This document shows, one piece after another, positions 39,333 through 64,000 of a stretch of 64,000 nt of DNA (positions are counted from its first letter, which is position 1; the number at the start of each line of letters is the position of its first letter). The translations under genes were made by a program, and so were the position numbers. Origin of the DNA: Nitrospirota bacterium (lineage in GTDB: Bacteria > Nitrospirota > JACRHL01); NCBI GenBank assembly GCA_029881725.1, contig JAOUMB010000001.1, forward strand, positions 17,321 to 81,320, written 5' to 3'. A model generated the notes under the pieces. It ran no database searches. It saw only the letters and a list, made by a program, of their open reading frames with translations, and was not told the origin of the DNA.

Positions 39333-40268
39333 CTACCAGTCGTCTTCCGTATAAAAATGAGCAGATATGCTTCCAGTTTTTTCCCGAATGCGCGCAATTT
39401 CCTCGTCAGTCAAACGTTTTTTCCAGGAATGGATCAGGTTGGAACTGTCCCTCCGAATCTCATGCTTCCCCTCGGTTTCCGAAGGATTTTCCGCCGATGT
39501 GTGGGCACGTATCACGTTCCGAACCTCGGGAGACAGAGATTCTCCAAGCGCCTGAAATACATCGCTGAAGCCACCCTCCGGATCCCGGGAAATGTCTTCG
39601 TGGCGAATAAATATCCAGTCTGGATGTCGATCGCGGTACCCGCGAATGGTCTCATGAATCAGATTCCACAGCAGGCAACCTTGGTCCACTATATTCATGT
39701 CCTGCGCAGCAAACTGCTCCAATTCACCCTTGAATTCACCTGCCATATCGCGCATGAACAAAGGCTGCCGGGTAAAATGGTCGAACGGGTGGGGCCATTC
39801 CGCCTTCTTCAGGCTGGAAACAAACGCCGCTGGATGCCGGATCATGGCGACAACCTGCATGTTGAACCGGCGCGCCAGCCATTCCGCTGAAAAAATGGCG
39901 ATCGGATCCTTTAGCAGCGGGCGGCGTCTCTCTCTTTTAAATAAACGGAACTCACGCCATTCCCAAAGTATTTTCATCATTTGCTTTGGACCCAGGCGTG
40001 GCGCCTGTCGCAGCCTTTCCATCGTGGAAAACGAAAACGTAACCGTGTCACAAAGCGCTTCATCAACCATTTCCGCATTGTCATCACAAATATAGGTGAA
40101 CCAAAGCGGAACATCGGCCCGGAACTGACCTCGGGAGTGGTTCACGTTAAACGGTTCGTGGATATACCCGAAGCGTGGGGATGCACAAAGCATCCGGCCC
40201 ACCCAGGTGGTTCCCGAACGATGTGATCCGGTTACCAGTACCGGTGAGTTTGTCCTGCCAGCGTTCAC
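39333..40268 (-). CDS. PAPS-dependent sulfotransferase family protein
   Basis: 5'-PSB-like P-loop VLVTGSHRSGTTW and downstream 3'-PB-like region (RHPAAFVSS). Lies in a lower-GC patch inside the glycosyltransferase operon. Confidence 0.75.
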   Translation of the reverse strand: MNAGRTNSPVLVTGSHRSGTTWVGRMLCASPRFGYIHEPFNVNHSRGQFRADVPLWFTYICDDNAEMVDEALCDTVTFSFSTMERLRQAPRLGPKQMMKILWEWREFRLFKRERRRPLLKDPIAIFSAEWLARRFNMQVVAMIRHPAAFVSSLKKAEWPHPFDHFTRQPLFMRDMAGEFKGELEQFAAQDMNIVDQGCLLWNLIHETIRGYRDRHPDWIFIRHEDISRDPEGGFSDVFQALGESLSPEVRNVIRAHTSAENPSETEGKHEIRRDSSNLIHSWKKRLTDEEIARIREKTGSISAHFYTEDDW

Positions 40269-40280
40269 TCCACATTCTCC

Positions 40281-40991
40281 TTACCCATTGGGAACTCCGG
40301 TTTCGGCTCCCGAGCGCTTCCCAAAGACCTTTCGAAACTGAGCAATGTCCTGAAAAGCAGGCGAAAGGGCCCTCAATTCCTCTTCCGGCAACTCCCACCA
40401 GCGGCTCTCCAGAAGAAAGCGGATATCGTCTTCCTCAAACCGGTATCGAATCAGCCGTGCCGGGTTGCCACCCACGATGGCGTACGGCGGCACATCCTTG
40501 GTAACCACTGCCCCGGCGGCCACCACGGCGCCTGTGCCAATGGTTACGCCACCGGGAATTATTGCCCGGTTGCCAATCCACACGTCGTGGCCGATCTCGG
40601 TGGGCAGCGGATCTTCGTCAAACCCCGGCCGGGTCACAAACGAGCAGCGGCAACCCGAGTTGTCCACCGAAAAAAAAGCCGGATAGGTGGACACGAAATC
40701 CCGCGCCGGGTGGCGGAACATGCCGATCTGCACCTCCTGCCCGATGGAGCAGAAGCGGCCCGCCCGCACATTGACCAGAATGGCCCCCTGCGCGGCATAC
40801 GAAAAATCCCCCAACCCGCTCCGAACCAGCCTGCTACGGTCGTGCGCCACCGAATGCCGCCCCAGGGTGCTCTCGATCACCCGCGCCCCGGCGGCCACCC
40901 GCACATTGCGCTCGGGCGTCGTCTGCCACATTTCCCTTCCGGTCAGCAGTCCCACGCCGCGACGCAGAATCCGCAACAGTCTCCGTATCAT
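40281..40991 (-). CDS. Hexapeptide-repeat O/N-acetyltransferase (xenobiotic acetyltransferase XAT / CatB-like subfamily)
   Basis: Start placed at MIRRLLRIL. Left-handed beta-helix repeats ([53 protein letters not shown]), which are XAT-like. Confidence 0.75.
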
Positions 40992-41004
40992 GGCGTCCTC
41001 CCCA

Positions 41005-42186
41005 TTATTTCGGGTCTCCGGCAATGCTCCGCCACAGTTTGCGAAACACGACCCGGATGACAAACCTGATGGCCGTGCGCGGCATGTATTTCGCGCAGAA
41101 TTCCTCGAACAGAAGGTGGTCGGACGGCGGTTTAAGGTTCGCGTCCCGCCGACACAGGATCAGGTCCTCCCCCTCAATCCCGTAGATGACGTTGGCAACC
41201 TCCGGTTTCATGCGCAACCCGAAACCCATCCGAGCAGTATTGCTCCTGCGTGTGGTCAGAACATATTCGGCGGCCACCTTGGAGAGGTCTTTCGAACCGT
41301 GCACGTCCACCGCATAGTCGTATCCCCGCAACCGGCCGGTGAGACGATTCAGCCGATCCGGGAGGATCTCGAAATGGGCGTCATACACCGCCACCGCCGA
41401 ATCCAGTGACTGAAACCGGAAAGGTGTTCCCTCCCGGGCCAGCGGCACCTGAAACATCAGGGTGGTCGACAGAAAGTGGGTCCCCGGTTCTCCTGTGTTG
41501 GTGGTCAGGCTTACTCGCGGAAAGACAAAATACCGGTCGCTCTCCACCATGTATTTGATAAAGCGCTTCAGCCACGAGCTGTCCGGCCAAGCGATGACCG
41601 AATCGGGCAACGGGTCGTCCTTGGATACCCCTTTTCCATCCCCATACCATTGCCGGAATGCGCTCCATTGGGTAGCGCTCCACGCCTGCCCCCAGGAGGA
41701 GGCAAACTGGATGAAAAACACGTCGCCCAGGTCGGGGACGGGGGAGAACGGCCTTGCCAGATAGGGAACCAGCGTGTGGCAATACAGCGAAATCCCGGCG
41801 ATGCGCGGGTCGTCACGGTAACTGTCCTGGGCATCCATCGTGTACCGGTAAAACGCGGGGGACACCAGCAGGTCATCCTCCAGGACGATAACCCCGCCGT
41901 ACTCCAGGGACAGGTCCCCACACGCGAGAATGTGCTCCCGCAGCCCCAGATTTTCCGGGTGTTCAATAATCCGTTTGGGGCCAAACCGCCAGTCAAACGC
42001 CCGTGCGGCCGTCGCCACCGCATCGGTATCGCTCTTGTCGATGCTGATGACCAGGGTCACCGGCTCCTCCGGATAGGCTGCCTGCGCCAGGGTACCCAGC
42101 AACCGGACGAGGGCGTCGGGGCGGTTATAGGCGGCCACCACAATGGCCGGGATTTTTCCGCTGTTCACGGTTTGTTGGTCGGTCAC
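41005..42186 (-). CDS. GT-A fold glycosyltransferase resembling eukaryotic-type N-acetylglucosaminyltransferase I (GnT-I / CAZy GT13-like)
   Basis: [22 protein letters not shown] ... [37 protein letters not shown] parallels the MGAT1 core (AVVVVACNRPEYL... VVEDDLEVAPDFFEYF...DPSLWCVSAW), including the EDD metal-binding motif. Assignment is from remembered family motifs, not a search. Confidence 0.6.
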
Positions 42187-42232
42187 GCGGCGCTCCCCCG
42201 GCGGCTGTGAATGGCTTGAATCCTCATGTCGA

Positions 42233-43159
42233 TTACCGGCCGATCAACATGGCAAGACGACCCACATAGTCCATCAATGGAGCGACTTCTTCGACCTGAT
42301 ACTGCTGCCAGTACGGATACCTTTCCCGATCTCTGAACCACACCTTGATCATGCCCTTGAAAACCAGTCTTCCTGCAGTCAGGAAAAACCGCCCAACCCA
42401 GTCTCGCCAACGCCAACCGTAATCTCCAAACAATACGTAACCTGACTTCCCGATCAGGTAACGAACCCTGAAATAATGGGGAACGGTCATTTTTCGGGGA
42501 GGCGCCAGGTGTTCCACCATCAATTCCGGATGGTAATACGCCTTTAACCCCGGTTTATATTCCCTGGCGTGGCGAATCAACAAGGTCTCCTCTCCAAACG
42601 CAAACGCATCCCCTTTTGGCCCGACCTCCGTATCAAACCCACCCAATTTATCAAGCAGGTCCTTCTGAAAAAACAGATTGGAGCCAGAAATATATTGTCT
42701 GTCATTCAGCCACCCCGGGGTATCCAGAACGCGGCGGATTTCATATTGGTCCTTAAACCACACAGGTCTGTTGGTCAGGTAAAACGGGTAGATCGATCCA
42801 CCGAAAATATCCGGCTCATGCTCGCGGATGATCTCAATCGCACGGCTGATCCAGTCGGGCATGGCACGGGCATCGTCATCCATGAACGCCACATAGGCGG
42901 CGCGCGCTTCGCGCCACCCTGCATTTCGGGCCACGCTGGCTCCCGGAACCGGCTCATCGATCACTTTGAAAAAAGGGTATTTAGCTGCATATTCCGCAGC
43001 AATTTCCGCAGTGTTATCGGTGCAATTGTTATTGACGATGATGACTTCATACTGGCCTTCGCATCCAACCTGCCGCACCAGCGAGTTAAAACAGCCGTCC
43101 AGAAGGTCCGCTCGATTATAGGTGGCCACCACCACGCTGATGATCGGGGTTCCACTCAT
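42233..43159 (-). CDS. GT2 family glycosyltransferase
   Basis: Start at MSGTPIISVVVATYNRADLL (ATG overlapping the upstream stop, ATGA). DXD-like FMDDDA. Lower-GC codon usage. Confidence 0.8.
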   Translation of the reverse strand: MSGTPIISVVVATYNRADLLDGCFNSLVRQVGCEGQYEVIIVNNNCTDNTAEIAAEYAAKYPFFKVIDEPVPGASVARNAGWREARAAYVAFMDDDARAMPDWISRAIEIIREHEPDIFGGSIYPFYLTNRPVWFKDQYEIRRVLDTPGWLNDRQYISGSNLFFQKDLLDKLGGFDTEVGPKGDAFAFGEETLLIRHAREYKPGLKAYYHPELMVEHLAPPRKMTVPHYFRVRYLIGKSGYVLFGDYGWRWRDWVGRFFLTAGRLVFKGMIKVWFRDRERYPYWQQYQVEEVAPLMDYVGRLAMLIGR

Positions 43160-44100
43160 TGGTTCCACAACTCCCTCTCAATCCATTTTCCCAGCCGGGC
43201 ACGAACCAGAGGAAACAGTCGGAATCCGGCCATGGAATCCAGAACCCCCGCAACGCTGGCCGGAGTACGGAAGGAGAAGAGGTCCAGTTTCATTGCCTTC
43301 AGAAAGTGGCTACGGGCTTCTGATATCTCACCCCCGGAATAAAGCTGTTCCGCACCGTGATAGTTGTGCCATGAGCGGATCCGACTCTCCTGACGCAACA
43401 CCCTCTGATCCCGGCACTGCCGAAAAAACCGTTCCAGAATCACCTCCCGTTCGCGCACAAACGGTATCCGGCTGCCACCGGTTTTGCTTTCATCATGCAG
43501 ACGAAACATCGCCAGGGGTTCATGCAGATACGCAAAATTAAAGGACAGGCTCGCCCGGTACCAGAAATCCACGTCCATCACGTAGTGAAGCGCCGGATCA
43601 AACGATTCCAGGGCATCCAAAACTCTGCGTCGGATAAACACGGTGGGTTGAAAGATAAAATTGCGGCACAATTGAACGGCCACATTAAATGGTCGGCTCT
43701 TCCACACCTGCTTTCGGCGCCCTTCTGCATCGATTACCGTCAAATCCGAATAAACCAGGTCCACTTCAGGGTGCTGCTCAAAATATTCCGCCACGCGCCA
43801 GAACGCGCCCGGCTCGTACAGGTCGTCCGAGTTCAGGTAGGCGACGATATCGCCGGTGCTCCTGCGCAACCCCTTGTTGATGGCGTCGGTCTGCCCGTTG
43901 TCCGGTTCGCTCACCCACCAGGCCAGCCGGTCCGCGTATTTTTCGATGACGTCGACGCTGTTGTCGGTGGAGCCGCCGTCCACCACCATGTATTCCAGAT
44001 TCGGATAATCCTGATCCAGCACCGAACGGATGGTTGCGTCCAGAAATTGTCCCTGGTTGAAGGACGGGGTGACGACGGAGATGCGGGGCATTTCAATCAT
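43156..44100 (-). CDS. GT2 family glycosyltransferase (third member of the ISxxTPxxN...VDGGSTD paralogue family)
   Basis: MIEMPRISVVTPSFNQGQFLDATIRSVLDQDYPNLEYMVVDGGSTDNSVDVIEKYADRL...YLNSDDLY shares the same block structure as the genes at 37411-39239. Confidence 0.8.
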   Translation of the reverse strand: MIEMPRISVVTPSFNQGQFLDATIRSVLDQDYPNLEYMVVDGGSTDNSVDVIEKYADRLAWWVSEPDNGQTDAINKGLRRSTGDIVAYLNSDDLYEPGAFWRVAEYFEQHPEVDLVYSDLTVIDAEGRRKQVWKSRPFNVAVQLCRNFIFQPTVFIRRRVLDALESFDPALHYVMDVDFWYRASLSFNFAYLHEPLAMFRLHDESKTGGSRIPFVREREVILERFFRQCRDQRVLRQESRIRSWHNYHGAEQLYSGGEISEARSHFLKAMKLDLFSFRTPASVAGVLDSMAGFRLFPLVRARLGKWIERELWNQ

Positions 44101-44106
44101 GCGGCG

Positions 44107-44988
44107 CTAGGAGAACAGGGAGTCGTAGTCGACCCGTTCAAACACATCCAGAAAACCGCCCTTGGTGGCGTTGTAAATACGAATTCCGTGCCGTTCGGCA
44201 TAGGTCCTTTGCCGGCGGTACCCTTCCCACATTCTGACCACGGCACTGGCCAGTTTGTCGTAGGGCCAGTCACCAACACCCGTATCTCCCGGTTGGGGGG
44301 GGAAGAAGTGCCGGTACCCTTCCTGGCCATATTTCAACCAATCATGGTCCATGCCGATCAGATAGATTTCACTGGCCCCCATGTACATCGCCAACTGGAT
44401 GCACATGACCGGCGTGGTTTGACACGAAGGCAGTGGACGGGTCAAGTCGAGTTCGAACCCTTCCACGGTGGGATCCACGTCCCCTCGCTGGTACAGATAA
44501 CGCAGATCCTTACCCGCAAACACGCCGCTTTCTTCCAGCGCCTGCCGGGCCTGCACCGGAACAAAATAGCTCTTTGCCCGCACCCGCTCGGATACACCGG
44601 AAACAAACTCCTGCACCCAGGGGTCGGACGCAATCTCCTTGATTTTCGGGTCCACCCCCACCCAATAGGTCGGGCTCCACCTGTCCAGCAGGGGTGAACG
44701 GTGGAACAGGTTGACCACAAAGGTGACTTCACCAAAAATGCGGGTCAGGTCGAGTTCGTTCAAGGAGGGTCCGTTGCCCAGAATAAAACAGCGCCGACCG
44801 TCCAGCGCCCCTTTGAGGTCGGCGTTGCGGCTCAGGGCTTTCCTTCCGCTGTCGCCAACCTCCTGGAGCCTCACTTCCTCCAGACGTTTCCGCTCCTGCG
44901 CTTGCAGCTTCCGATGGTGGGCCTCGACCAGGCCATGGGGCGTGATCCACCGGGCCATTCGGCGCATCGTTTGGGATATCCCTTTCAT
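44107..44988 (-). CDS. DUF115 / Maf (motility-accessory-factor)-like protein; candidate nonulosonic-acid (pseudaminic acid) transferase
   Basis: RCFILGNGPSLNELDL motif characteristic of the DUF115/MptE-like family, to which the Campylobacter Maf flagellin pseudaminyl-transferases belong. Start ATG overlaps the pseI stop (ATGA). Confidence 0.65.
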   Translation of the reverse strand: MKGISQTMRRMARWITPHGLVEAHHRKLQAQERKRLEEVRLQEVGDSGRKALSRNADLKGALDGRRCFILGNGPSLNELDLTRIFGEVTFVVNLFHRSPLLDRWSPTYWVGVDPKIKEIASDPWVQEFVSGVSERVRAKSYFVPVQARQALEESGVFAGKDLRYLYQRGDVDPTVEGFELDLTRPLPSCQTTPVMCIQLAMYMGASEIYLIGMDHDWLKYGQEGYRHFFPPQPGDTGVGDWPYDKLASAVVRMWEGYRRQRTYAERHGIRIYNATKGGFLDVFERVDYDSLFS

Positions 44989-46052
44989 TCAATCAGATCC
45001 CAGGATGCGGGGGTGCCGCGCCGAACACTACGGGTCACCCGCTTTCCCATCAATGTGCCAATGAACTTGGGGGGTAATCCATGTCCCGGTCGAATGGCAC
45101 GCAGGTTTTCCCCGGAAAAAGCCTCTCCCGCCTCCATATCCTTCACCACATAGAGAGAGCGTCGAAACCGGATGGAGGCCCGTTCTTTTTCGGTGGGGCC
45201 GTACGAAATGCTGCCCAATGCCTGCCAGGCCCGCTCACTTTCGACCACCAGCGCCTTCAGTTCACCCGGTTCCAGCGAAAAAGCGGAATCCACCCCGCCA
45301 TCGGCCCGCGCCAGGGTGAAGTGCTTTTCAAGGAGCGTGGCCCCCAACGCCACGCTGGCCACCGCCACCCCAACGCCCATCGTGTGGTCCGACAGCCCCA
45401 CCTGACAACCAAATAACTCCCGCATGTGGGGTATGGTGAGGATGTTGGTGTTTTCCGGGGTGGCCGGATAGCTGCTGGTGCATTTGAGCAGAATCAGGTC
45501 CCCGCAACCGGCCTCCCGCGCGGCGGTGACTGCTTCGTCCAGCTCGGCCACGGTGGCCATGCCGGTGGAGATGATCATCGGCTTTCCAGTGGCGGCCACC
45601 TTGCGGATCAAAGGCAGGTCGATATTCTCGAACGATGCGATCTTGTAAGCGGGAACGCCCAGTTCCTCCAGAAAATCCACGGCGGTTGCGTCGAACGGGG
45701 AACTGAACGCCACCAGCCCGCGCTCCTTGCACCGGTCCAGAATCGGCCGGTGCCATTCCCAGGGGGTATGTGCCTTCTGGTACAGGGCATACAGATTTTC
45801 TCCATGCCACAGGCTGGAGGGGTCATCGATGGCAAACTCCCCCTCCTTCAGGTCCAGGGTCATTGTGTCCGCGGTATAGGTCTGAAGCTTGAGCCCGTGC
45901 GCGCCCGCATCGGCGGCCGCATCGACAATCTCCAGCGCCCGCTCGAGGGACTGATTGTGGTTGCCGGACATCTCGGCAAGGACGAAGGGCGGATGAGCCG
46001 GCCCAACCGAAACCCCACCAACGGAGATGACTGTACTGTCTTTTTCCACCAT
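44985..46052 (-). CDS. pseI: Pseudaminic acid synthase (NeuB family)
   Basis: Start at MVEKDSTVISVGGVSVGP. FVLAEMSGNHNQSLERALEIVDAAADAGAHGLKLQTY, YKIASFE, LKCTSSYPA and GLSDHT motifs, plus a C-terminal SAF domain, closely parallel PseI/NeuB. Confidence 0.9.
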   Translation of the reverse strand: MVEKDSTVISVGGVSVGPAHPPFVLAEMSGNHNQSLERALEIVDAAADAGAHGLKLQTYTADTMTLDLKEGEFAIDDPSSLWHGENLYALYQKAHTPWEWHRPILDRCKERGLVAFSSPFDATAVDFLEELGVPAYKIASFENIDLPLIRKVAATGKPMIISTGMATVAELDEAVTAAREAGCGDLILLKCTSSYPATPENTNILTIPHMRELFGCQVGLSDHTMGVGVAVASVALGATLLEKHFTLARADGGVDSAFSLEPGELKALVVESERAWQALGSISYGPTEKERASIRFRRSLYVVKDMEAGEAFSGENLRAIRPGHGLPPKFIGTLMGKRVTRSVRRGTPASWDLIE

Positions 46053-46060
46053 TTCTCCTC

Positions 46061-46312
46061 TCACGCTCCGGATCGGGCTGGCACCACATGACGCATCAGA
46101 CAAAACGCTTCGGCAGCACCCGTGCCCACACTCGCTCCGCGCCAACGGGCCAAGTGTTCCACCGCTTCCCTGGAGCGAGCGTGTGGCCACGGTCTCATTT
46201 CCTCCTGGTAGCAATCCAGAGCCGCCAGCTTGATGGCCCCGCACGACGATACAACGTCAGCGAGAACCAGCGGAAAATCGGTAGCCACCACGTATGCCTG
46301 CTCGTCAGGCAT
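46061..46312 (-). CDS. Small hypothetical ORF (83 aa) filling the gap between pseG/H and pseI
   Basis: Start at MPDEQAYVVATDFPLVLADVV. Fills an otherwise unexplained 283-bp gap in a tightly packed operon. No motifs recognised; could be non-coding. Confidence 0.3.
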   Translation of the reverse strand: MPDEQAYVVATDFPLVLADVVSSCGAIKLAALDCYQEEMRPWPHARSREAVEHLARWRGASVGTGAAEAFCLMRHVVPARSGA

Positions 46313-46335
46313 CGTCTTTCGCTTTCCGCGGATGC

Positions 46336-47901
46336 TTAGCCCGCGGTTTCCGCAACAGGGTTTTGAACCCACAGCCCGTCTTTCCCCAACAGATATCCTT
46401 CACGTTCAAACAACATTCTGGAGCCCGTATTCTGATCCAGAATCTCCGCCTTGATCTCGGCGTACGGGACCAGTCTCCTGGCACACCGGATTGCTGCGCC
46501 TCCCACCCCCTGCCGCTGATGGTCCGGAGCTACAAGAAGGGAAACCTCGTACACGTCTCGGTTTTCTTCCCCCTCCAGGCTGTCGAGCCTTAATACCCCT
46601 GCTGGCTGCCGCTTATGTATCACAATATTCAGCAGGCACGACGGATCACTCAATCGAGACTTAAACCAGGACACATGCTCATCAAAAGACGGTACGCTCG
46701 GATTCCGGCAATGCGTCCGCATTCCCGGAGTGGACTGCCATTCAAATACCCGCTGAATATCCTCCGTTCGGGCCGGGCGCACCCACACCGGATTTTTATC
46801 GGTCGCGAACTCCGGAACCAGCCGCTGTCCCACACGCCCCGTCCCCAATCCGTCACACATCCTGGCCGCTTCCAGGGACATTCGGGTCAAGCGTTCTGGA
46901 TCTTCCGCAAGGTTCCTCAGTGAAGTCGCGATATGTTCCGGGTCCACACTCCGAAAATTCCCCAGGTTAACGGCTGCACCGGCGCGTTCCATGATGCCGG
47001 CGACCAGCATCTGGTTCTCTGCAATCACCAAAGTCATCGAAGGGAGCCCCATACAGCAACGTTCCCAGGAAGTGGTGCCAGCCGCCCCGATCCCGATGTC
47101 CGCGTGTGCCATCAACTCGGGTATGTTGCCCGGGCTCACATGTACGGCAACGTCCAGCGACGATTCCTCACACCAGTGTCGCACCACTTCCAGATGCGGT
47201 GCGCCATGCGCCAGAATGACATCCACGGTCCATTGAAATCCGCTTAAGGCGATCGCCTCGAGCACGGTTTTCGTCACGTTATCCGGATCCAAAGCCCCCA
47301 TGCCCACCAAGATGCGCGCAACGCCTTTACGTGATCGACGTCGGGCCAACGAAGTCGTCCGCACCTGATTGAACTCCGGCCGCAACAGTGCATACGCGCT
47401 ACCGGTCATCGTATGGGCGGATGGCGCCAAGGCCTGATAATCCCCCGGCAGACGCCCAAAGGTCTGATCCAGAAGCAAATCGCAATCGTGGTGCCGATCC
47501 GCCAGATCATCAATCACCATGATTCGCTCCACATGAGGACGCAAGACCCTCTCCCAATTGGCATCGATCGCGTAATGGTCCACGATCAGCCAGTCCGGAC
47601 GCACTGCCATTTCCCGGATAGCCCCCACCGTCTGCTCCGCGTCCATGGCCACGGAAGCACCCAGCCAGTGCGCATGCCCCTCCTGCCGGGCTTCCTCCTG
47701 GAAACCGTCGATTCCGGGCAGGCGGGAGACCGGATAGCTCCGTTCCCGCTCGACCCAATCACACAGGTTTCCCGGGTGTTCACGGAATATAAAATGAACC
47801 TGGTGCCCCTCCTCCCGAAGCCGGTCAGCCAGGGCCAGGCAGCGCATGACGTGGCCGGTACCAATCATCAGGGCGGCATCTGTGCGGAACACGAATTTCA
47901 T
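46336..47901 (-). CDS. pseG: Bifunctional PseG-PseH fusion: UDP-2,4-diacetamido-2,4,6-trideoxy-beta-L-altropyranose hydrolase (N-terminal, GT-B-like) fused to a GNAT N-acetyltransferase (C-terminal)
   Basis: N-terminus MKFVFRTDAALMIGTGHVMRCLALADRL is PseG-like. C-terminal about 150 aa has a GNAT fold with motif A QRQGVGGAAI. Confidence 0.8.
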   Translation of the reverse strand: MKFVFRTDAALMIGTGHVMRCLALADRLREEGHQVHFIFREHPGNLCDWVERERSYPVSRLPGIDGFQEEARQEGHAHWLGASVAMDAEQTVGAIREMAVRPDWLIVDHYAIDANWERVLRPHVERIMVIDDLADRHHDCDLLLDQTFGRLPGDYQALAPSAHTMTGSAYALLRPEFNQVRTTSLARRRSRKGVARILVGMGALDPDNVTKTVLEAIALSGFQWTVDVILAHGAPHLEVVRHWCEESSLDVAVHVSPGNIPELMAHADIGIGAAGTTSWERCCMGLPSMTLVIAENQMLVAGIMERAGAAVNLGNFRSVDPEHIATSLRNLAEDPERLTRMSLEAARMCDGLGTGRVGQRLVPEFATDKNPVWVRPARTEDIQRVFEWQSTPGMRTHCRNPSVPSFDEHVSWFKSRLSDPSCLLNIVIHKRQPAGVLRLDSLEGEENRDVYEVSLLVAPDHQRQGVGGAAIRCARRLVPYAEIKAEILDQNTGSRMLFEREGYLLGKDGLWVQNPVAETAG

Positions 47902-47994
47902 GCCTGCAACAAACGTCCTCTGTTCATCATTGTTCTAACTCCTGAATAGAGAGTGGATGTTTGCTCCAGCAAGGCACTCCCCTTGTGGTGCCCT

Positions 47995-48721
47995 TTAAAC
48001 GTGTTTTTGTCCCACATGGGCATTGATTTCCAACAGGGACGGACGGCTTCCAACCAGCCGCAATACGTCCGCATAGCCAAACCGCGGGTTATCCGGCCAC
48101 AGGGCCGCATAAACTTCCCGTATCAGGCGCAGGTCGTCCGGCTCGTCCACCGTCCAGCGCAGGTGGCTATGATCCTCCGAATCCACCAGGTGCCCCTGCG
48201 GAAAGCGCTCCGGGCGGCGCCAGATGAACGGGGTCACGTGTTCCCGCTCCCCCGGCTCCACGGCCTCCCGGCTGGCGGCTTCCAGCGCGTCCCGGCTGAA
48301 CACCTCCACATCCAGCCCGCGTGGAAACGTCCGCTGGTGACAGTTGGACACATAGGCCACCGCCGGGGCAGCAGCCGCATACGCCTCCACACACCGATCG
48401 ATCACCTGGGGATCGATCAACGGACAATCGGACGTGATCCGAACCACCACGCCAGCTTTCGCCGCCTGCGCGGCTCCCTGATACCTGGCCAGCACATCGT
48501 CCGTGCTGCCGCGCCATACCGAAACGCCCAATTGTTCGCACAGGGCCAGGATAGGTGCTTCCGTTCCATCGTCGGTGGTGGCGATCCACACCTGTTTCAA
48601 GCGGGAGGCGCGTCGCACCCGTTCCAGCACGTGCCACAGCAGCGGTTTTCCCTGCAGGTCCATCATCACCTTGCCGGGCAGCCGCGTGGAGGTCATGCGC
48701 GCCTGAATGATGGCGACCACT

Positions 48722-48729
<8 letters not shown>
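47995..48729 (-). CDS. pseF: Pseudaminic acid cytidylyltransferase (CMP-sugar synthetase family)
   Basis: VVAIIQARMTSTRLPGKV ... VRITSDCPLIDP motifs of the NeuA/PseF family. GTG start at 48729 (or 48720) adjacent to or overlapping the pseC stop. Confidence 0.8.
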
Positions 48730-52177
<3,448 letters not shown>

Positions 52178-52186
52178 GGTCCGCTA

Positions 52187-53023
52187 CTACACCAGATCCG
52201 CATAGGTGGCTTCCATGCGCCGGAACATGTACGCACCCAGCACCAGGAAAAACAGGGAAATCCCCACCGACCCGTACAGCGCCGGGTTGGGTGGCGTAAC
52301 CGTCGAAAACATGCTCCAGCGGGTCAGTTCGATCACCCCCACCACCGGGTTTAACCCGTACAGCCACTGCCATTTTTCCGGGATCATCGACAGTGGATAA
52401 ATGACTGGTGAGGCAAACATTCCCACCCGAACGATAAACGGCACCAGTTGCCCCACGTCCCGGTATTTGATGTTCAGCGCGGAAAAGCACAGCCCAACCC
52501 CCAGCGCCGAGACCCAAGCCCACACCAAGCCCAACGGCACCGCCCACAGGGCGTGCCAACTGGGCACCATGCCCTTCAACAGAGTGGCCGCCAGCAACAC
52601 CAGTATCGCCACCAGCGCATCCACCAGTGGCACCGCGGTGGCGGCCAGGGGCGTAATCACCCGTGGAAAATAGACCTTGGTCAGTAGCGCCCGCTGACTC
52701 ACGAGCGAGTTGGAGACATCCGCTAACGCCGAGGCGAAGAAGGTCCAGGGAATTATCCCGGCCAGGAAAAACAGCGGGTAGGGGATGTCTCCCGATGGCA
52801 TGCGCGCCCAGATGCCAAAGATGATCGAGAAGATGACCGCCATCAGAACCGGGTTCAGCACCGCCCACATCAGCCCCAGCGCGGTCTGCTTGTAGCGCAC
52901 CGACACGTCGCGCCACACCAGTTGCAGCAGCAGTTCACGGAACGACCACAATTCCGAAAAGCGGAACGGGTGGACTCCGGTGGCCGGGGAGATGACCGTT
53001 TCAGTGTCGGCTCTGGAGGTCAT
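52187..53023 (-). CDS. wzm: O-antigen/polysaccharide ABC exporter permease Wzm (ABC-2 type)
   Basis: Start placed at [11 protein letters not shown] (overlaps the fcl stop). Six TM segments. Motifs such as ELWSFRELLLQLVWRDVSVRYKQTALGLMWAVLNP are typical of ABC-2 permeases. Confidence 0.8.
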   Translation of the reverse strand: MTSRADTETVISPATGVHPFRFSELWSFRELLLQLVWRDVSVRYKQTALGLMWAVLNPVLMAVIFSIIFGIWARMPSGDIPYPLFFLAGIIPWTFFASALADVSNSLVSQRALLTKVYFPRVITPLAATAVPLVDALVAILVLLAATLLKGMVPSWHALWAVPLGLVWAWVSALGVGLCFSALNIKYRDVGQLVPFIVRVGMFASPVIYPLSMIPEKWQWLYGLNPVVGVIELTRWSMFSTVTPPNPALYGSVGISLFFLVLGAYMFRRMEATYADLV

Positions 53024-53988
53024 CCCCGCACCGTGCCCTTCTCCCGCTCCGCGTGAAAATCCGCCACCGACTGGCGCACGCCGTCTTCCAGGCCGATGGT
53101 TGGCGTCCAGCCCAGCGCGGTGAGCCTGGACGTATCCAGCAGCTTGCGCGGGGTGCCGTCGGGTTTCGTCGCATCCCACACGATGTCGCCGGTAAAACCG
53201 GTGAGCTTTTGCACCAGCTCCGCCAGTTCACGGATAGAGATGTCCTTGCCCCATCCGGCGTTGATGAGCGGCATGGCGTCCTTGTCCGCATGCACCCGAT
53301 CGGCCAGATACAGGCAGGCGTCGGCCAGGTCGTCCACGTGCAGAAACTCGCGGCGCGGGGTGCCGGATCCCCACAGGGTGACGGTAGCGTCGCCCCGCTC
53401 GGCAGCTTCGGTGAACTTGCGGATCATGGCCGGCAGCACGTGGGAGCCGTTCAGGTCGTAGTTGTCGCCAGGGCCGTACAGGTTGGTGGGCATCACCGCG
53501 ATGTAGTCGGTGCCGTATTGCCGGTTATAGGCCTCGCACATGGAGATTCCGGCAATCTTGGCCACCGCGTAGGGGGCGTTGGTGGGCTCCAGCGGGCCGG
53601 TCAGGAGGTGGTCCTCCTTCATGGGCTGGGGGCACTCGCGGGGGTAGATGCAGGAGGAGCCGAGAAAGACCAGCCGCTGCACCCCGGACTTCCACGCCTG
53701 ATGAATCACGTTGTCCTGAATGGCCAGATTGTCGCGGATGAACTCCGCGGGAAAGGTGTTGTTGGCCAGGATTCCGCCCACTTTGGCGGCGGCCAGAAAC
53801 ACCACCTGGGGCCGTTCGGCGGAAAAGAAGTCCGCCACGTCGGCCTGACAGGTCAGGTCCAGTTCGGCGCGGGTGCGGGTGATGATGGATTCAAAGCCCG
53901 CCGCCGCAAGGCGCCGCACCAGCGCGGCACCCACCATGCCGCGATGGCCCGCCACGAACACGCGGGCCGTTTTGGCCAGTTCGCTCAT
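53020..53988 (-). CDS. fcl: GDP-L-fucose synthase (GDP-4-keto-6-deoxy-D-mannose 3,5-epimerase/4-reductase)
   Basis: [22 protein letters not shown] and YAVAKIAG motifs. Full-length WcaG/Fcl similarity. Confidence 0.9.
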
Positions 53989-55064
53989 TCGTGATGGACC
54001 CGCGTATCAATGGTGTGCCCGGCTTTTTTGAGGGTGTTCTCCCGCTCGGCCAGATCCAGATCGTGATCCACCATCATCGCCACCAGCCCGTCGATGTCCA
54101 CCTTCGGGTCCCACCCCAGCACCTTTTTGCTCTTGGTGGGGTCGCCCAGCAGCAGTTCCACCTCGGCGGGACGGAAGTAGCGGGGATCGATCTCCACGAA
54201 CTGCTCCCAATCCAGTTCCAGCCGCCCGAATACCTTCTGCACGAATTCGCGCACCGAGTAGGTCTTGCCGGTGGCGATCACAAAATCGTCCGGGGTGTCC
54301 TGTTGCAGCATGCGCCACATGGCTTCCACATAATCGCCCGCAAAACCCCAGTCGCGCTTGGCGTCCATGTTGCCCAGATACAGCTTGTCCTGAAGCCCCA
54401 GCTTGATGCGGGTGGCGGCGCGGGTGATCTTGCGGGTCACAAAGGTTTCGCCGCGGCGGGGGGACTCGTGGTTGAACAGGATGCCGTTGGTGGCAAACAT
54501 GTCGTAGGCCTCCCGGTGGTTCACCGTCTGCCAGTAGCCGAATACCTTGGCCACCGCATAGGGGCTGCGCGGGTGGAACGGGGTGCTTTCGGTCTGCGGG
54601 GTTTCACGCACCTTGCCATACATCTCGGAGGAGCAGGCCTGATAAAAGCGCACCTCGTGCCCGGTGCGGTCCCGGTAGTCCCGCAGGGCCTCCAGCAGGC
54701 GCAGGGTGCCCACCGCCACCACGTCGGCGGTATACACCGCTTCGTCGAAGGACACCTTCACGTGGGACTGGGCGCCCAGGTTGTATACCTCGTCCGGCTT
54801 CACCTGCTCCACGATGTGACGCAGGTTGGCACCGTCGGCCAGATCACCGTAATGCAGAAACAGGCGCGCCCCCTTCTGGTGCGGATCCTGATAGATATGA
54901 TCGATGCGCTGGGTATTGAAGGTGGAGGCGCGGCGGATGATCCCGTGCACCTCGTACCCCTTGTCCAGCAGCAACTCGGCCAGATACGAGCCGTCCTGTC
55001 CGGTAATTCCGGTAATCAGTGCAACCTTGCGTTCACTCGACACGATGTCCTCCACACGCGACAA
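53985..55064 (-). CDS. gmd: GDP-mannose 4,6-dehydratase
   Basis: [50 protein letters not shown] and [10 protein letters not shown] are canonical Gmd. 4-bp overlap with fcl. Confidence 0.95.
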
Positions 55065-59307: not shown

Positions 59308-61299
59308 ATGCATTCCAAGCACCCCCACCTGATCCACCCCAAATACCGCCCGGACATCGACGGGCTGCGCGCGGTCGCCATTCTGTCGGTGATCCTGTTT
59401 CACCTTTTTCCCGGAAAAATGAAAGGCGGCTTCATCGGGGTCGACATCTTCTTCGTCATTTCGGGATTCCTGATTTCGACCATCGTCTTCTCCAGCCTGG
59501 AGCGTGACCGCTTCAGCATCGTCGAGTTTTACATCCGCCGCATCCGGCGCATCTTCCCCGCGTTGATCCTGGTGATGACCGTCGCGTTTGCGGCGGGCTG
59601 GTTCCTGTTGTTCAGCGGTGAATTCAAACAGCTCGGGAAGCACGTTGCGGGCGGGGCCGGGTTTGTGTCCAACTTTATCCTGAGGACCGAGAGCGGCTAT
59701 TTCGACGCCGCCGCCGAGACCAAACCCCTGCTCCATTTGTGGAGCCTGGCGATTGAAGAGCAGTTTTACGTGTTCTGGCCGCTGCTGCTCGCCTTTGTGT
59801 GGAAGCGGCACTGGAATTTCCTCAAAATCACCGCCGCCATTGCCATCGCCTCGTTCGCGGCCAACATCCACCTGATCAACACCAGTCCGGAGTCGGCTTT
59901 TTACCTGCCGTTTTCCCGGTTCTGGGAACTCATGGCCGGGGGCGTTCTGGCCTATATCGCCCTGCACCGCCCCCGGTTGAACAGCCGCTACCCGAATGGC
60001 CAGTCCCTGCTTGGTTTTGCCCTGCTAGCCACCGCGCTGCTGCTGTTGGACAAGCACAGCGCGTTTCCGGGATGGTGGGCGCTGCTGCCCGCGGCGGGCA
60101 CGTTCCTGGTGATCTCGGCCGGCCCCCAGGCGTGGCTGAACAAAACCTTTTTAGCCAACCGGGCCATGGTTCTGATCGGCCTGATCAGCTATCCGTTGTA
60201 CCTGTGGCACTGGGTGATTCTGGCCTACGTCAGAATCGAGGACAGCGCCCCGTCCAGACAGCTGAAAATCGCCGTTCTGACAGGTTCGATTCTGCTGGCC
60301 TGGTTCACCTATGTGGTGGTCGAAAACCCGCTTCGCACCGGCAGGAATCCCGGCACCAAAGCCACGGTACTGCTGTCCGCCATGGTGGTGCTGTTTGCCG
60401 CCGGATTCTTCACCTTCAGTCAGAACGGCCTGGAAAGCTGGCGGCATGACGGCGACCGGTACCGGTTTATGGGCCATTTCGAAAACAGCCTTCCCGAAAT
60501 GGCCTATTTCAAAAAAATCGGGGAACATGAAACGTCCCGGGAGGACTGCAATTTTTACGACGTGGAGCGGTACCGCAACGGAGCCAGCACCAAAGTCCCG
60601 GTAAAGCGGATCAGCGAGCGTTGCTATTTACGGGATACGGCGTTCAGCCGGTCGGTGTTCATCTGGGGGGATTCCCACGCCCAGCACCTTTATCATGGAA
60701 TCCGGAACAACCTTCCCGCTTCCGAATGGCAAGTCCTGATCGTGGCCAGTTGGGGAGCGCACCCGGACCCCCACGCGGATCACCCCTCAAAAACCGACTT
60801 CCGGCAGCAGTCCAACTGGTTTGCGCTGAAGGCCATTTCCGAGGCCAGGCCGGATGTGGTGGTTGTCGCCCAGGAGAGCGGCCACAGCCCCGCAGCCATG
60901 CGTGAGATTGCGGATACGCTGAAGGGCATGGGGGTGGGAACCGTCCTGTTTACCGGACCGGTGCCGCACTGGAAACCGTCCCTGCCACGCCTGATCGCCC
61001 GAAAATTGTGGAACAACACGCCCGAACGCACCCTGGTGGGAATCGACCGCCAGGTCATCGCCCGTGACCAAGCCCTGAAAGCCGGCTTCCCCCGCATGGA
61101 AGGCGCCCGGTATGTCAGCCTGATCGACTTTTTCTGCAACCGGGAGGGATGCCTGACCCGTTTTGGAGACGACCGGGTGGAGGGCATCACCACGTACGAC
61201 TATGGCCACCTCACCCCCGCGACGTCCGACCGCCTGGGCAGGGAACTGCTGGCGCCGATCATTTCCGGCGACCCCCGCCCGGAATCGAACGGTTGGTGA
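59308..61299 (+). CDS. Acyltransferase family 3 (OafA/YrhL-like) membrane O-acyltransferase with C-terminal SGNH hydrolase-fold domain
   Basis: RPDIDGLRAVAILSVILFHLFP N-terminal acyltransferase-3 signature, about 10 TM segments, then a roughly 280-aa soluble domain with GDSH-like block (IWGDSHAQHL). Confidence 0.85.
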   Translation: MHSKHPHLIHPKYRPDIDGLRAVAILSVILFHLFPGKMKGGFIGVDIFFVISGFLISTIVFSSLERDRFSIVEFYIRRIRRIFPALILVMTVAFAAGWFLLFSGEFKQLGKHVAGGAGFVSNFILRTESGYFDAAAETKPLLHLWSLAIEEQFYVFWPLLLAFVWKRHWNFLKITAAIAIASFAANIHLINTSPESAFYLPFSRFWELMAGGVLAYIALHRPRLNSRYPNGQSLLGFALLATALLLLDKHSAFPGWWALLPAAGTFLVISAGPQAWLNKTFLANRAMVLIGLISYPLYLWHWVILAYVRIEDSAPSRQLKIAVLTGSILLAWFTYVVVENPLRTGRNPGTKATVLLSAMVVLFAAGFFTFSQNGLESWRHDGDRYRFMGHFENSLPEMAYFKKIGEHETSREDCNFYDVERYRNGASTKVPVKRISERCYLRDTAFSRSVFIWGDSHAQHLYHGIRNNLPASEWQVLIVASWGAHPDPHADHPSKTDFRQQSNWFALKAISEARPDVVVVAQESGHSPAAMREIADTLKGMGVGTVLFTGPVPHWKPSLPRLIARKLWNNTPERTLVGIDRQVIARDQALKAGFPRMEGARYVSLIDFFCNREGCLTRFGDDRVEGITTYDYGHLTPATSDRLGRELLAPIISGDPRPESNGW

Positions 61300-61673
61300 G
61301 CGCGACGGGCTCGGCCATCGGGCCGCCTGCGCGACGATGCGCCTCCATCCGGGTGGGCAACCCCGGCGAATTCGGTAACCCATCCGTAAATTTCCCCGTT
61401 ATTAACCGTTAACGCACCGGTAACTTAGCCCGGTGCTAGGCCACAGGTGCTGCGTGCACGGCGATCGTGGCTGGTACGGTAATTTGGCCCTGCGTCGGGC
61501 AGCGCCTGGGGAGCCTCCCTTGAACCGCCACAACACTTTGCTTTTTAAAAAAACACCCTCCCCCAATCCAACCGTGAGGGAGCCAAAATTCCCGCTCCCC
61601 CGGCACCCCCCATCCACTGCAGGGGGGCGCTCCAACCGTCCCGATCGCCGTGCGCGCAGCCCCTCCACAAGGC

Positions 61674-61866
61674 CTCTTTTTTTCCACATTTTCAACGGGT
61701 TCTGAATTTTCGCCCAAAATTCCCCGGTTCATCCCCCTGGAATCGTGCTACCGGCCTTCAGAACCCATTGATATTCCGTTCCGAGGTCACCGTGAACATG
61801 CGAAATCCACGGTGCGAAACGCTTCCACAAAGCCATTTTTTTCCAACATTTTCAATTGGTTCTGAA
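61674..61866. repeat. Repeated motif TTTTTTCCA(A)CATTTTCAA(c/t)(g/t)GGTTCTGAA (copies at about 61674-61706 and 61841-61866, partial at 61937-61970) plus a perfect 10-bp inverted repeat GGGTTCTGAA (61697-61706) / TTCAGAACCC (61757-61766), inside a roughly 1.06-kb noncoding gap
   Basis: Read directly. This region has distinctly lower GC than the flanking genes and no credible ORF. Confidence 0.4.
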
Positions 61867-62358
61867 CGCGAAAACCGTTATTTTTCACCGTGTTTCACTT
61901 CGCAACCACAAACGCGAATTGGTCCAATAAAACAATCAGTTCTGACTTTCCAGCCAACATTTTGCGAAACAAATCCGCCGCGCCCACAAACGGCCAAAAA
62001 CACCACGTTGTCAGGGAGTTATGCCCGGTGGTTTGCCGTGGCCCACGGTTTAGCTTTGCCGTTTGCGAAGCGAAATCGCACGATTCGGCCTGGTCCACAC
62101 CCTCAGGCGGCGCCGGGCGCGGCCTAGGTTTCGCGTTATAACCCGTTGATGGTTCGAACCACGAAGCGATCTCCGGCGCCAGAAACGCGGCATACGCCGG
62201 AAACGCAGGGGGAGGTCAACCAGCGGCTGCCAGGCTGGGGCGTGTCACGGTGGTGTGGGCGCCGGGCCCGGAAATGCCGCCCGCGCCCGTGGGCCCCAAC
62301 GGCGGCCACCCGCCCCGGCACCTCCGGCCCACACCATCCCACACCGGGCCGGGACCGC

Positions 62359-63243
62359 TCAGGGAAGGGCGCCGCGGCTGTAGCACCAGAGGGGAAGGTC
62401 CGTGCCGGTGGGGGCGATGGCCACCTCACCCTCGGACTTGAGGGCTTCCAGTTCCTCCCGGGCGGAACGGTCGTCCACGCCGCAGGCCATGGCCACCTCC
62501 CGCGTGGCCGCGCAGCGGAACCGCTCCAGATAGGCGCGGGGATCCGGCGGGGCGGCGGCGGACAAATCGGGGTCCAGACGGGCGATGCCCTTGATGTAGT
62601 CGTCGAAGGTGCTGTCCCCGTCAAAGGCGGCCACCTCCCCTTTGTCGTTCATCATGATCAGGGTGGGAAAGCCGTAACGGCGGCTGCCGTCGGCCTCGGT
62701 CTTCACGTCGCGGGCGCCGGGCAGCGGCTGGCGGGTGGCCGCCAGATCGTCCGCAAAGTGCTCGCGGGCCAGGGGGCCGTCCACCTCCTCCGCAAAGCGC
62801 TCCACGTCCATGCCGGGCACCGCGGCCGCCAGGGAGACCAACTCCTTGACCCGGTCCACCGGTCGGCAGCCGGTGAAAAAGGCCTCGCGCACCCGGCGCA
62901 GGTACGGGTCGTCCAGCCCCTGCAACCCGGCGGCCTTCACGGCAATGCACGCGGGGTGGCTGGACAGGGGCGGATGCCGCTGCCACACGCTGCCGTCAAA
63001 CGGCATCCGGTGGTCGCGGCAAACTTCCTCCTGATGCAGGCGGTACTGACCCGGGTCTTCGCCGGACAGTCCGAACTCGGCATCGGCAAAGGACGCATTG
63101 CGCGCCGCCAGCAGGCCGCCCATGCGATGGTGAATGATCAACCCGTGGCCAAAGGTCCACACCAGCCGCCGATACAGCGGCTCGTTGCACCAGGACCACG
63201 AACAGAGGGGATCGGTGAAATAATCGGCAGCCAGGCGATTCAT
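62359..63243 (-). CDS. DsbA-family thioredoxin-fold protein (FrnE / 2-hydroxychromene-2-carboxylate isomerase-like) with a roughly 70-aa C-terminal extension
   Basis: Start placed at MNRLAADYFTDPLCSWSWCNEP (CxxC-type CSWSWC motif in the position of the DsbA active site). Confidence 0.7.
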   Translation of the reverse strand: MNRLAADYFTDPLCSWSWCNEPLYRRLVWTFGHGLIIHHRMGGLLAARNASFADAEFGLSGEDPGQYRLHQEEVCRDHRMPFDGSVWQRHPPLSSHPACIAVKAAGLQGLDDPYLRRVREAFFTGCRPVDRVKELVSLAAAVPGMDVERFAEEVDGPLAREHFADDLAATRQPLPGARDVKTEADGSRRYGFPTLIMMNDKGEVAAFDGDSTFDDYIKGIARLDPDLSAAAPPDPRAYLERFRCAATREVAMACGVDDRSAREELEALKSEGEVAIAPTGTDLPLWCYSRGALP

Positions 63244-63504
63244 GGCGTACGCACTCCCTTCCCTGAAAATCCTGCCATACAGGAGTGTGCTGCGCACTGT
63301 TTATATCGGGCACCCGACTGCTCGTTGGCACCGTTCCGGGTGCCCCCATGAAGGAAAATTGCCACCAATTATCGAAAGCGGTTATGACAAATGACACAGA
63401 CCGCGATGAATTCCATTTGTCGCCCCAATTGCAGTATCGTAATGCCCCGCCGGGCGTGGTGCGTTTCGTCCCGGAATCAGATAGTTTCGAACCCGAGGGG
63501 AAGC

Positions 63505-64000
63505 ATGCTTCTGTTCCGCCAACTGGCAGTCGCCGCCGTTTTTTCGGGCCTCCTGCTGACCGGGTGCGCCAGCACCGGTGGCGCGGAAGGCGCAGCCCGG
63601 GGCGGGCCGGACGTTCCTGCCGCCCTGCCGGGCATGAATCCGGCCGCTCCCGCCCCCACCATGGAACTGGGCGCCCTGCTGTGGGAAGCGGCGGCCCAGG
63701 GGGATCTGGACGCGGTGGAGGCGTTGCTGGACCAGGAGGCACCGCTGGAGACCCGCACCGACGGGCGGCGCACCCCCCTGTGGATGGCCGCCGCCAACGG
63801 ACACGTGGCGGTCACCCGGCGGCTGATCGAGGCCGGAGCCGATGTGAACGTGGTGGGACCGGTGGGCGCCACCCCGTTGCAGGAAGCCGCCATCAGCGGG
63901 CACACCGAGGTAATCGCCCTGCTGGCCGCCGCCGGGGCCAATCTGGACGCGCCCCACGTGCGCCTTGGCCCGGCGCTGATGCAGGCGGTGGTGCGCAACA
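63505..64000 (+). CDS. Ankyrin-repeat lipoprotein (3' partial, runs off the window)
   Basis: Lipobox LLTGCA. At least three ankyrin repeats (LWEAAAQGDLDAVEALL, TPLWMAAANGHVAVTRRLIEAGADVN, TPLQEAAISGHTEVIALLAAAGANLD). Confidence 0.75.
   Translation, partial: MLLFRQLAVAAVFSGLLLTGCASTGGAEGAARGGPDVPAALPGMNPAAPAPTMELGALLWEAAAQGDLDAVEALLDQEAPLETRTDGRRTPLWMAAANGHVAVTRRLIEAGADVNVVGPVGATPLQEAAISGHTEVIALLAAAGANLDAPHVRLGPALMQAVVRN

Follow-up and report, generated by a model that had tools for sequence, protein, structure and literature searches.

What does a bacterium keep in more than 1 kb of DNA that lies between two genes and encodes no protein? The question is raised by positions 61300–62358 of a 64-kb stretch of DNA from a Nitrospirota bacterium (contig JAOUMB010000001.1), the whole of which was analysed and is called the window below. 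Here a gap of 1,059 nt separates two convergent genes, one for an AT3+SGNH acyltransferase and the other for a DsbA-like protein. For uncultivated phyla, Nitrospirota among them, annotation relies almost wholly on protein homology. We found that most of the gap (61363–62209, ~850 of its 1,059 nt) is occupied by a single copy of a modular noncoding element of ~0.85 kb, which belongs to a previously undescribed family with at least seven diverged copies in unrelated contexts.

A dispersed modular element in the gap

The initial annotation, made from the sequence of the stretch alone, had judged the gap to be noncoding, AT-richer than its surroundings and endowed with short repeats. Indeed, no frame of the gap shows codon-position GC periodicity, a strong third-position GC excess marks both flanking genes, and the GC content at 61550–62150 is 0.47–0.56 versus 0.63–0.74 in the flanks. 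The two full copies and the partial copy of a repeated motif are present (units 1–3 in Table 1), as is the perfect 10-bp inverted repeat with its 50-nt loop, and both GC-clamped hairpins sit a few bases off the coordinates first given. The gap had thus rightly been singled out as special, but its local repeats had not been recognised as sub-units of a larger dispersed family. With up to 3 mismatches allowed, the 24-nt motif has 2 matches in the window, both in the gap, against 0 in 100 shuffles. The search for it elsewhere, named in advance as the check that could overturn the claim, found it again as part of the ~0.85-kb element at at least six other loci.

Scanning metagenome contigs for the motif gave mostly single chance matches, and five contigs of assembly Ga0224496 also matched the flanks of the motif. 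Homology of the copies was established by BLAST, MAFFT and nhmmer. A seventh copy (L140; L numbers denote sequenced loci) and an eighth variant, the latter known only as a spurious 67-aa open reading frame (ORF), emerged from an HMMER search of 1.84 billion representative proteins in which the translated open frame of the window copy served as the query. Five copies including that of the window were traced to one metagenome-assembled genome (MAG; locus tag OEY97, "Nitrospirota bacterium"), with the flanking proteins MDH5525743/44, 5526079, 5526290/91, 5528017/18 and 5528041/42 and the flanking-gene locus tags OEY97_12010, _12125 and _12130. The accessions span ~2,360 numbers, which fits the ~2,430 genes counted by locus tag and thereby suggests, without proving it, that all five reside in a single MAG. 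Because the flanking proteins carry consecutive accessions, the NCBI annotation is blank at every traced copy.

The neighbours change from copy to copy. While the window copy lies between the AT3 and DsbA genes, L108 is flanked by a different AT3 gene (34% identical to that of the window, in the same position beside the element) and an aldo-keto reductase gene, L063/L138 by MFS-TfoX and a cadherin-Ig adhesin, L039/L134 by YtfJ-DUF2953 and a periplasmic protein-methyltransferase, and L052 by hypothetical proteins. The flanks are unrelated among the seven sequenced copies, as in the dispersed copies of a miniature inverted-repeat transposable element (MITE) or a non-autonomous insertion sequence (IS). 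Convergent neighbours were seen at three copies, namely those for which both neighbours are known and unambiguous, and this fits an independent unit.

Among GTDB representative genomes, no match was obtained to the DsbA-like protein as a close relative or to a 21-nt invariant core word. Three invariant words gave no match in IMG/VR, and a blastn search (word size 11) with 61360–62160 gave none in the PLSDB plasmids and INPHARED phages. A literature search turned up only papers on eukaryotic long noncoding RNAs. On L138 the ENA gene caller has placed a 247-aa ORF (3736–4479) on the plus strand of the L063 copy; it has no Pfam match, and we regard it as spurious because that plus strand is G-poor and stop-poor. 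Spurious ORF calls of this kind can serve to locate more copies through protein databases.

All seven assembled paralogues have their parts in the same order and orientation: a left block, a variable spacer 1, a 424-nt core, a hypervariable spacer 2 of ~53 nt and a right block (Table 1). The element starts with GGTAACC... and finishes with ...CGCrGG. In the left block, the 25-mer CCGTTAACGCACCGGTAACTTAGCC (61406–61430) is identical in five versions and has a single substitution in each of two others; an nhmmer profile of this block matches the window, L063/L138, L108, L052, L134, L140 and L137 with E values of 1e-13 to 1e-21. The stem of the left-block hairpin is partly kept. Its 3' arm varies, the outer GCA/TGC pairs are preserved in all versions but one, and at the inner positions G-T pairs or mismatches are frequent. 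Spacer 1 is bracketed by a 23-nt inverted repeat that the initial annotation had missed. The arms of this bracket are an "A-box" of the form GTGCTnCGCGCACGGCG, and shorter equivalents with one C-G to G-C exchange occur in L063 and L052. The sequence of spacer 2 is unrelated between copies, and no conserved fold of it was found (z-scores of −2.0 to +1.3, not different from shuffles).

Table 1. Features of the gap and its two flanking genes, with positions in the window.
Feature	Position	Strand	Basis and remarks
AT3 + SGNH O-acyltransferase gene (left neighbour)	59308–61299	+	Pfam PF01757 + PF19040; MDH5525743.1; outside the element
Left block	61363–61440		Copy alignments; nhmmer profile
Left-block hairpin GCACCGG-9 nt-CCGGTGC	61414–61420 / 61430–61436		Sequence; seven left blocks compared
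Spacer 1	61441–61661		GC 0.65; 231 nt in the window copy, 231–387 nt across copies
Bracket of spacer 1 (23-nt inverted repeat, 91%)	61445–61467 / 61642–61664		174 nt between the arms
CCCCCC/GGGGGG hairpin in spacer 1	61606–61611 / 61622–61627		Sequence
Repeat unit 1: CCACAAGGCC box, T-run, then TCAACGGGTTCTGAA box	61654–61706	+	Direct-repeat search
Core	61662–62085		423–424 nt in 7 of 7 copies; GC 0.44–0.51 in the six copies first compared; plus strand C-rich, skew −0.17 to −0.28
AATCGTGC	61741–61748		Invariant in all copies; complementary to the last 8 core nt (RNAalifold pairs 80–87 with 418–425)
Inverted TCAAnGGGTTCTGAA box	61754–61771	−	Complementary to units 1 and 2
Repeat unit 2	61814–61866	+	79% identical to unit 1 over 53 nt
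Degenerate repeat unit 3: CCACAAACG ... CAATCAGTTCTGA ... CCAACATTTT	61906–61963	+	Partial copy of the initial annotation
Two hairpins, GCCGTGG-cc-CACGGT and GCTTTGC-CGTTT-GCGAAGC	62035–62071		Stems invariant, loops variable
GCACGATT	62078–62085		Sharp right edge of core conservation; partner of 61741–61748
Spacer 2	62086–62136		52–54 nt in 5 of 7 copies, 60 and 73 nt in the others; GC 0.71–0.77
Right block: TAACCCrTTGA (inverted TCAAnGGGTT box), then GGCCAnA..CGCCAGAAtCGCC	62137–62209		Alignments
DsbA-like Thioredoxin_5 gene (right neighbour)	62359–63243	−	Pfam PF13743; MDH5525744.1; outside the element

Within the element, repeats are nested on several scales. The box TCAACGGGTTCTGAA (61692–61706) pairs with TTCAGAACCCATTGA (61757–61771), 50 nt away, with 93% agreement over 15 nt that include the perfect 10-mer, and the inverted arm at 61754–61771 also matches unit 2 at 61852–61869. 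Unit 3 (~61906–61963) can be written as CCACAAACG ... CAGTTCTGA ... CCAACATTTT as well. Two boxes recur on the same strand with a periodicity of ~80 nt that the initial annotation had missed. One is CCACAA(A/G)GCC at 61667, 61827, 61908 and 61986; the other is (TCAAnn)GGTTCTGA / GTTCTGA at 61698, 61858 and 61937, and near 62012 it has a fifth, degenerate occurrence. The latter box is inverted at 61757–61771 and again in the right block at 62139–62150. Among the shorter recurring words (CACCGTG/CACGGTG, ACCGTTA, GCGAAA and GTGCTnCGCGCACGGCG), CACCGTG and CACGGTG form an invariant complementary pair, and the complementarity between AATCGTGC and GCACGATT, likewise missed by the initial annotation, grows to 10–11 bp in L039, L108, L052 and L140.

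Some features of the spacers are confined to certain copies. By eye, five of the seven copies of spacer 2 have at least four GGG runs within ~50 nt, a potential G-quadruplex pattern that lies on the minus strand in L063, L134, L052 and L140 and on the plus strand in L108; the window copy lacks it. In spacer 1 of L134 (8840–8885), L064 and L108 we noted a common AT-rich hairpin with a 12-bp stem, CATTTCATTTAA-TTTGTCG-TTAAATGAAATG, and these three copies also have an extra repeat unit before the core, with the box TCAATCCCTTCTG in place of TCAATGGGTTCTG. Hairpin and extra unit are both absent from the window and L063 copies. When the spacers were compared as guides with other DNA of the same genome, they gave short matches at chance level only.

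Selection on the nucleotide sequence

The column statistics refer to the six copies that were first compared; L140 was added later. Pairwise identity in the core is uniform at 77–86%, and 266 of the 426 core columns (62%) are invariant. These and the variable columns form pronounced clusters, with 112 runs versus 201 expected in a runs test (z = −9.2), and essentially no indels occur in the core of the seven copies. The variable core columns have a GC content of 0.46. The spacers reach 0.72–0.77, and we take them to be near neutral because this is close to the GC content of the third codon positions of the genome. Defined blocks of each copy are under purifying selection. The block-wise conservation together with the invariant core length argues that the copies are maintained and not decaying, contrary to the degraded mobile element considered in the initial annotation. 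An element kept by selection should therefore have some function, be it that of an RNA or that of a DNA platform to which proteins bind.

The constraint lies on nucleotides and not on a protein, since the core substitutions are spread evenly over the codon positions (55/52/49) and neither stops nor frames are conserved: the 192-codon open frame on the plus strand of the element is broken in three of the six compared copies, with no codon-position bias. A six-frame pseudo-protein query of a 5.8-billion protein set gave no match, and the HMMER search of the 1.84 billion representative proteins gave only two, both spurious ORFs on other copies. Hence we rejected a pseudogene, for which neither a translated family match nor residual codon structure was found. 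A small conserved peptide fared no better. A 35-codon frame on the minus strand is open in six of six copies, but its start codon is not conserved and its third positions are invariant, so that here too the constraint acts at the nucleotide level.

RNA gene or DNA platform

With low confidence, and as a tentative choice, we favour the reading that the element constitutes a gene family for a long noncoding RNA, probably on the minus strand. Each copy would then be a gene for a noncoding RNA of ~0.45–0.85 kb, whose putative transcript would more likely come from the minus strand, the G- and T-rich one. Its invariant blocks are predicted to form local hairpins at 61787–61814, 62035–62049 and 62053–71, and long-range helices would connect 61741–48 with 62078–85 and the TCAAnGGGTTCTGAA boxes with their inverted counterparts. 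In this model the GC-rich spacers would be tolerated as linkers, the boxes placed every ~80 nt would be repeated putative binding sites, and the RNA could serve as a scaffold or a sponge for a protein.

Several observations point in this direction. On the minus strand G exceeds C and T exceeds A throughout the element, including the variable columns (skew −0.19 on the plus strand) and most spacers, and the skew is near zero in the flanks. The alifold energy is −90 kcal/mol for the minus strand versus −65 kcal/mol for the plus strand, and the z-scores of the minimum free energy are −2.05 versus −0.92. Stems are invariant while the loops of the hairpins vary, and spacer 1, whose length varies, is enclosed by complementary arms that show one compensatory exchange. 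The covariation measures of the minus strand lie marginally above those of shuffles. Among the six sequences, double changes occur in 4 of the 113 pairs predicted for the minus strand, where 19–44 of 500 shuffles reach the observed values, and in 2 of the 80 pairs predicted for the plus strand, where 44–124 of 500 do so. The structured noncoding RNA that had been put forward initially is thus backed by thermodynamics and covariation, each of them weakly, but not by Rfam.

Other results weigh against an RNA. No gathering-level Rfam match was found in the window or in the six loci of other copies, and in a permissive scan of 61250–62400 the best hits (11.8–13.3 bits, E 7–10) were at chance level. 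The covariation, with so few pairs changed on both sides, is not significant for six sequences, and the shuffle control does not provide a probability. A consensus scan revealed no sigma-70-like promoter, and the two terminator-like sites correspond to chance expectation. Wobble-compatible changes disagree on the strand: those in the bracket of spacer 1 and in the left-block hairpin favour plus, and those elsewhere favour minus. Additionally, what is conserved in the left block is the primary sequence, for which almost no structure is predicted. In spacer 2 the length is kept (52–54 nt) and neither the sequence nor the fold, a pattern more typical of the spacing between protein sites on DNA, and the boxes occur in both orientations, as expected of binding sites.

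ARAGORN detected no tRNA or tmRNA in the window. We also rejected a sponge of the Csr/Rsm type, since the 8–12 GGA per copy on the minus strand are about what we estimate from composition. Sigma-54 and extracytoplasmic-function (ECF) promoters, checked by eye, and apparent similarities to sites of Mu, Tn3, Tn402 and P1 parS were put down to coincidence.

As an RNA gene, the element would resemble HEARO/omega-RNA, GOLLD, ROOL and OLE, which are likewise hundreds of nucleotides long, conserved in blocks, restricted to certain lineages and of unknown or recently found function, HEARO being multi-copy as well. In contrast to these, it has no Rfam match on either strand, no IscB/TnpB ORF and no prophage or tRNA context, and its covariation, the property by which those families are defined, is not significant among six sequences.

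A close rival, of only slightly lower probability in our eyes, is an explanation at the level of DNA: a cis-acting, recombination-active nucleoprotein site, or a non-autonomous element that would be moved or rearranged by a recombinase from another locus. Proteins would bind the boxes TCAAnGGGTTCTGAA, CCACAAAGCC, CACCGTG, ACCGTTA and GTGCTnCGCGCACGGCG as putative sites, exact spacing would be needed for a folded complex, and the exchange of boxes would rearrange DNA beside genes for surface structures. This would accommodate the core length that is fixed in seven copies, the 52–54 bp of spacer 2 (~5 helical turns) with unconstrained sequence and fold, the boxes in both orientations at ~80-bp intervals and the invariant 25-nt sequence of the left block that has no predicted structure. 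The TCAAnGGGTTCTGAA box includes TCAA-N4-TT, the heart of the IHF consensus; this heart recurs, but the full consensus is absent from the window. Accessory surface genes are nearby, namely those for two AT3 O-acyltransferases and a cadherin/Ig adhesin, and an O-antigen cluster.

Further hints come from individual contigs. L137 (ENA ERZ27296367 k141_1293117, 4993–5473; window 61300–61660) shares the cysS-AT3 genes with the window; after them come a variant left block of 93% identity, the exact reverse complement of window 61360–61660, a different 26-nt flank and the end of the contig. The junction is a shared 19-nt A-box, GCTGCGCGCACGGCGATCG. The smallest k-mer used by the assembler is 21 by default, and this shared box is shorter. 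L002, from the same sample, ends at 61660. L001 (ENA ERZ27296342 k141_2166680, 3644–4160; window 61570–61910) switches copies inside a shared 39-nt block (window 61871–61909), being an exact L063 copy to the left and an exact window copy to the right. Finally, L039 and L064 are ~97% identical over the left ~400 nt and ~78% beyond, which suggests gene conversion between copies. L137 and L001 may represent real exchange or rearrangement at conserved boxes, or they may be assembly chimeras.

What speaks against such a DNA site is that no recombinase, transposase or rep gene adjoins any copy, that the ends of the element have neither terminal inverted repeats nor target duplications, and that the strand asymmetry of the neutral positions is left unexplained. 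Inverton-like arms do exist in the bracket of spacer 1 and its equivalents in L063 and L052. Simple flipping, however, is not seen, given the common internal order and orientation of the seven assembled paralogues: the inverted segment of L137 is accompanied by an additional left block and another outer flank, and the other assemblies have one orientation. The element can also be compared with the invertible promoter regions that one master invertase, Mpi, controls at surface-polysaccharide loci of Bacteroides fragilis, and with multi-site recombination sites of the res/attP type. These are, like the element, several paralogous noncoding regions of one genome beside surface genes with conserved inverted repeats and strict spacing, and L137 offers a segment in the opposite orientation. 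Unlike them, the element has no identified recombinase, its one inverted segment is not a clean flip, and it is far larger than the repeats and promoter of known invertons.

An 850-nt module that selection maintains at six or more loci is one of two things that have escaped recognition, a family of large RNAs or a DNA machine acting in cis. If the RNA gene proves true, it would be a rare, large and multi-copy addition to the short list of big bacterial noncoding RNAs; a recombination platform would explain the assembly breaks and the rearrangements beside surface-antigen genes in sediment populations. We would go further only with reserve, since it seems rather improbable, if conceivable, that the family represents a new class of genetic module. 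This would be a large (~0.5–0.85 kb), multi-copy and length-invariant noncoding RNA with repeated protein-binding units, or a dispersed multi-site recombination platform that exchanges boxes between copies, as the junctions of L001 and L137 would suggest, and thereby reshuffles the genome beside genes for O-antigen, acyltransferases and adhesins.

Dispersed repeats are common in bacterial genomes, and a selfish or decaying one, an old MITE-like or IS-derived sequence without present function whose copies stay similar by gene conversion, has to be weighed as well. The multi-copy, intergenic and lineage-specific occurrence, the assemblies that break inside the element and the visible conversion between copies would all agree with it. 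We nevertheless consider it unlikely, because the variable positions are heavily diverged while 62% of the core columns are invariant and clustered, because conversion predicts pair-specific tracts and not the same invariant blocks everywhere, and because the core is essentially free of indels. When the ends of five complete copies were aligned, neither terminal inverted repeats nor a target-site duplication appeared. MITEs and non-autonomous IS share with the element that they are noncoding, dispersed, lineage-specific and assembly-breaking, but differ from it in these ends, in their indels and in a conservation concentrated at the ends. REP/BIME, the enterobacterial RIP/RIB, ERIC and the rhizobial RIME come closer in being multi-copy, intergenic mosaics of bidirectional motifs and variable linkers. 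RIP/RIB include an IHF site, just as the box of the element has TCAA-N4-TT, and both often lie between convergent genes. Yet such families measure 35–300 nt with tens to hundreds of copies, in contrast to ~850 nt, fewer than ten known copies and a length-invariant 424-nt core. The element also has no REP-type palindrome units, the sequence comparison with these families having been made via Rfam only.

A replication origin, or a DnaA-titrating cluster of the datA/DARS type, is very improbable. In this reading the CCACA pentamers would act as DnaA boxes and the AT-rich core would unwind, with IHF-like sites completing the picture. There are eight such pentamers (61441–62095), a TTTTCCACA box at 61680 and four TCAA-N4-TT sites versus 0.23 expected, and the cumulative GC skew declines along the window and levels off close to its end, which lies 2 kb past the gap. 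Similarly, oriC, datA, DARS and the Bacillus DnaA-box clusters (DBCs, ~six clusters) are AT-rich intergenic regions of 0.3–1 kb with CCACA boxes and IHF-like sites. But the boxes of the element fit TTATCCACA poorly, with one box within 1 mismatch and two within 2 mismatches, compared to up to five per kb elsewhere in the window. They all lie on one strand, ~80 nt apart, and the single good box, TTTTCCACA, is not conserved in the other copies. An origin is also at odds with at least seven copies, five of them traced to one genome, and with the nearby genes, which do not include dnaA, dnaN or gid.

The iteron-like array suggested initially applies only loosely, in so far as two boxes recur every ~80 nt. 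We rejected an iteron origin, because the 53-nt units are 160, 81 and 78 nt apart and not phased at ~22 bp and no rep gene is found at any copy. A CRISPR array was discarded as well, the units being at most 79% alike and the stretches between them being conserved across paralogues. Largely refuted, finally, is an attachment scar of a prophage or integrative element, or a frameshifted pseudogene spanning the gap, both raised in the initial annotation: the lower GC and proteobacterial affinities of the neighbouring AT3 gene and the 192-codon frame could have spoken for it, but no tRNA was found, the neighbours have no integrase domain, nothing similar turned up among phages, plasmids or IMG/VR contigs, and no protein homologue or codon structure stands behind a frame that half of the compared copies break.

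Flanking genes and surroundings

The DsbA-like protein is identical to MDH5525744.1, labelled "MAG: Nitrospirota bacterium", and is present in San Francisco Bay-type sediment assemblies. In the relatives L007, L010 and L011, whose DsbA proteins are 51–70% identical, other genes lie directly downstream, with no comparable gap and no element; hence the gap is not a conserved syntenic spacer. L007 (DsbA 61% identical) does have two long gaps of ~1.07 kb and ~0.6 kb (6958–8031 and 8375–8970), on either side of small HTH_3/XRE genes that lie immediately upstream of its ankyrin-DsbA pair; the nhmmer profiles of the element match neither gap. On the other side, the AT3/SGNH gene has a lower GC content of 0.58–0.60, and its best homologues, 58–63% identical, are proteobacterial (Ferriphaselus, Janthinobacterium, Methylococcales), which together suggest horizontal acquisition. 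The element is absent from the locus of the best AT3 homologue (L133).

Further neighbours of the element in the window are cysS, the gene for an ankyrin-repeat lipoprotein and an MCP gene. The lipoprotein gene starts at 63506 (lipobox LTGC) and is kept as a pair with the DsbA-like gene in L007 and L010; between the two lies a divergent intergenic region of 260 nt (63244–63505) with a lowered GC content of ~0.55. A long minus-strand cluster for a surface polysaccharide (O-antigen/nonulosonic acid) extends over 35380–55064 with a lowered GC content of 0.55–0.63. It comprises many GT2/GT1 glycosyltransferases, a NeuB-like nonulosonic-acid synthase, a CMP-sugar cytidylyltransferase, a DegT aminotransferase, a sulfotransferase, a Wzm/Wzt ABC exporter and a GDP-mannose dehydratase, and the element sits at the edge of this accessory polysaccharide region.

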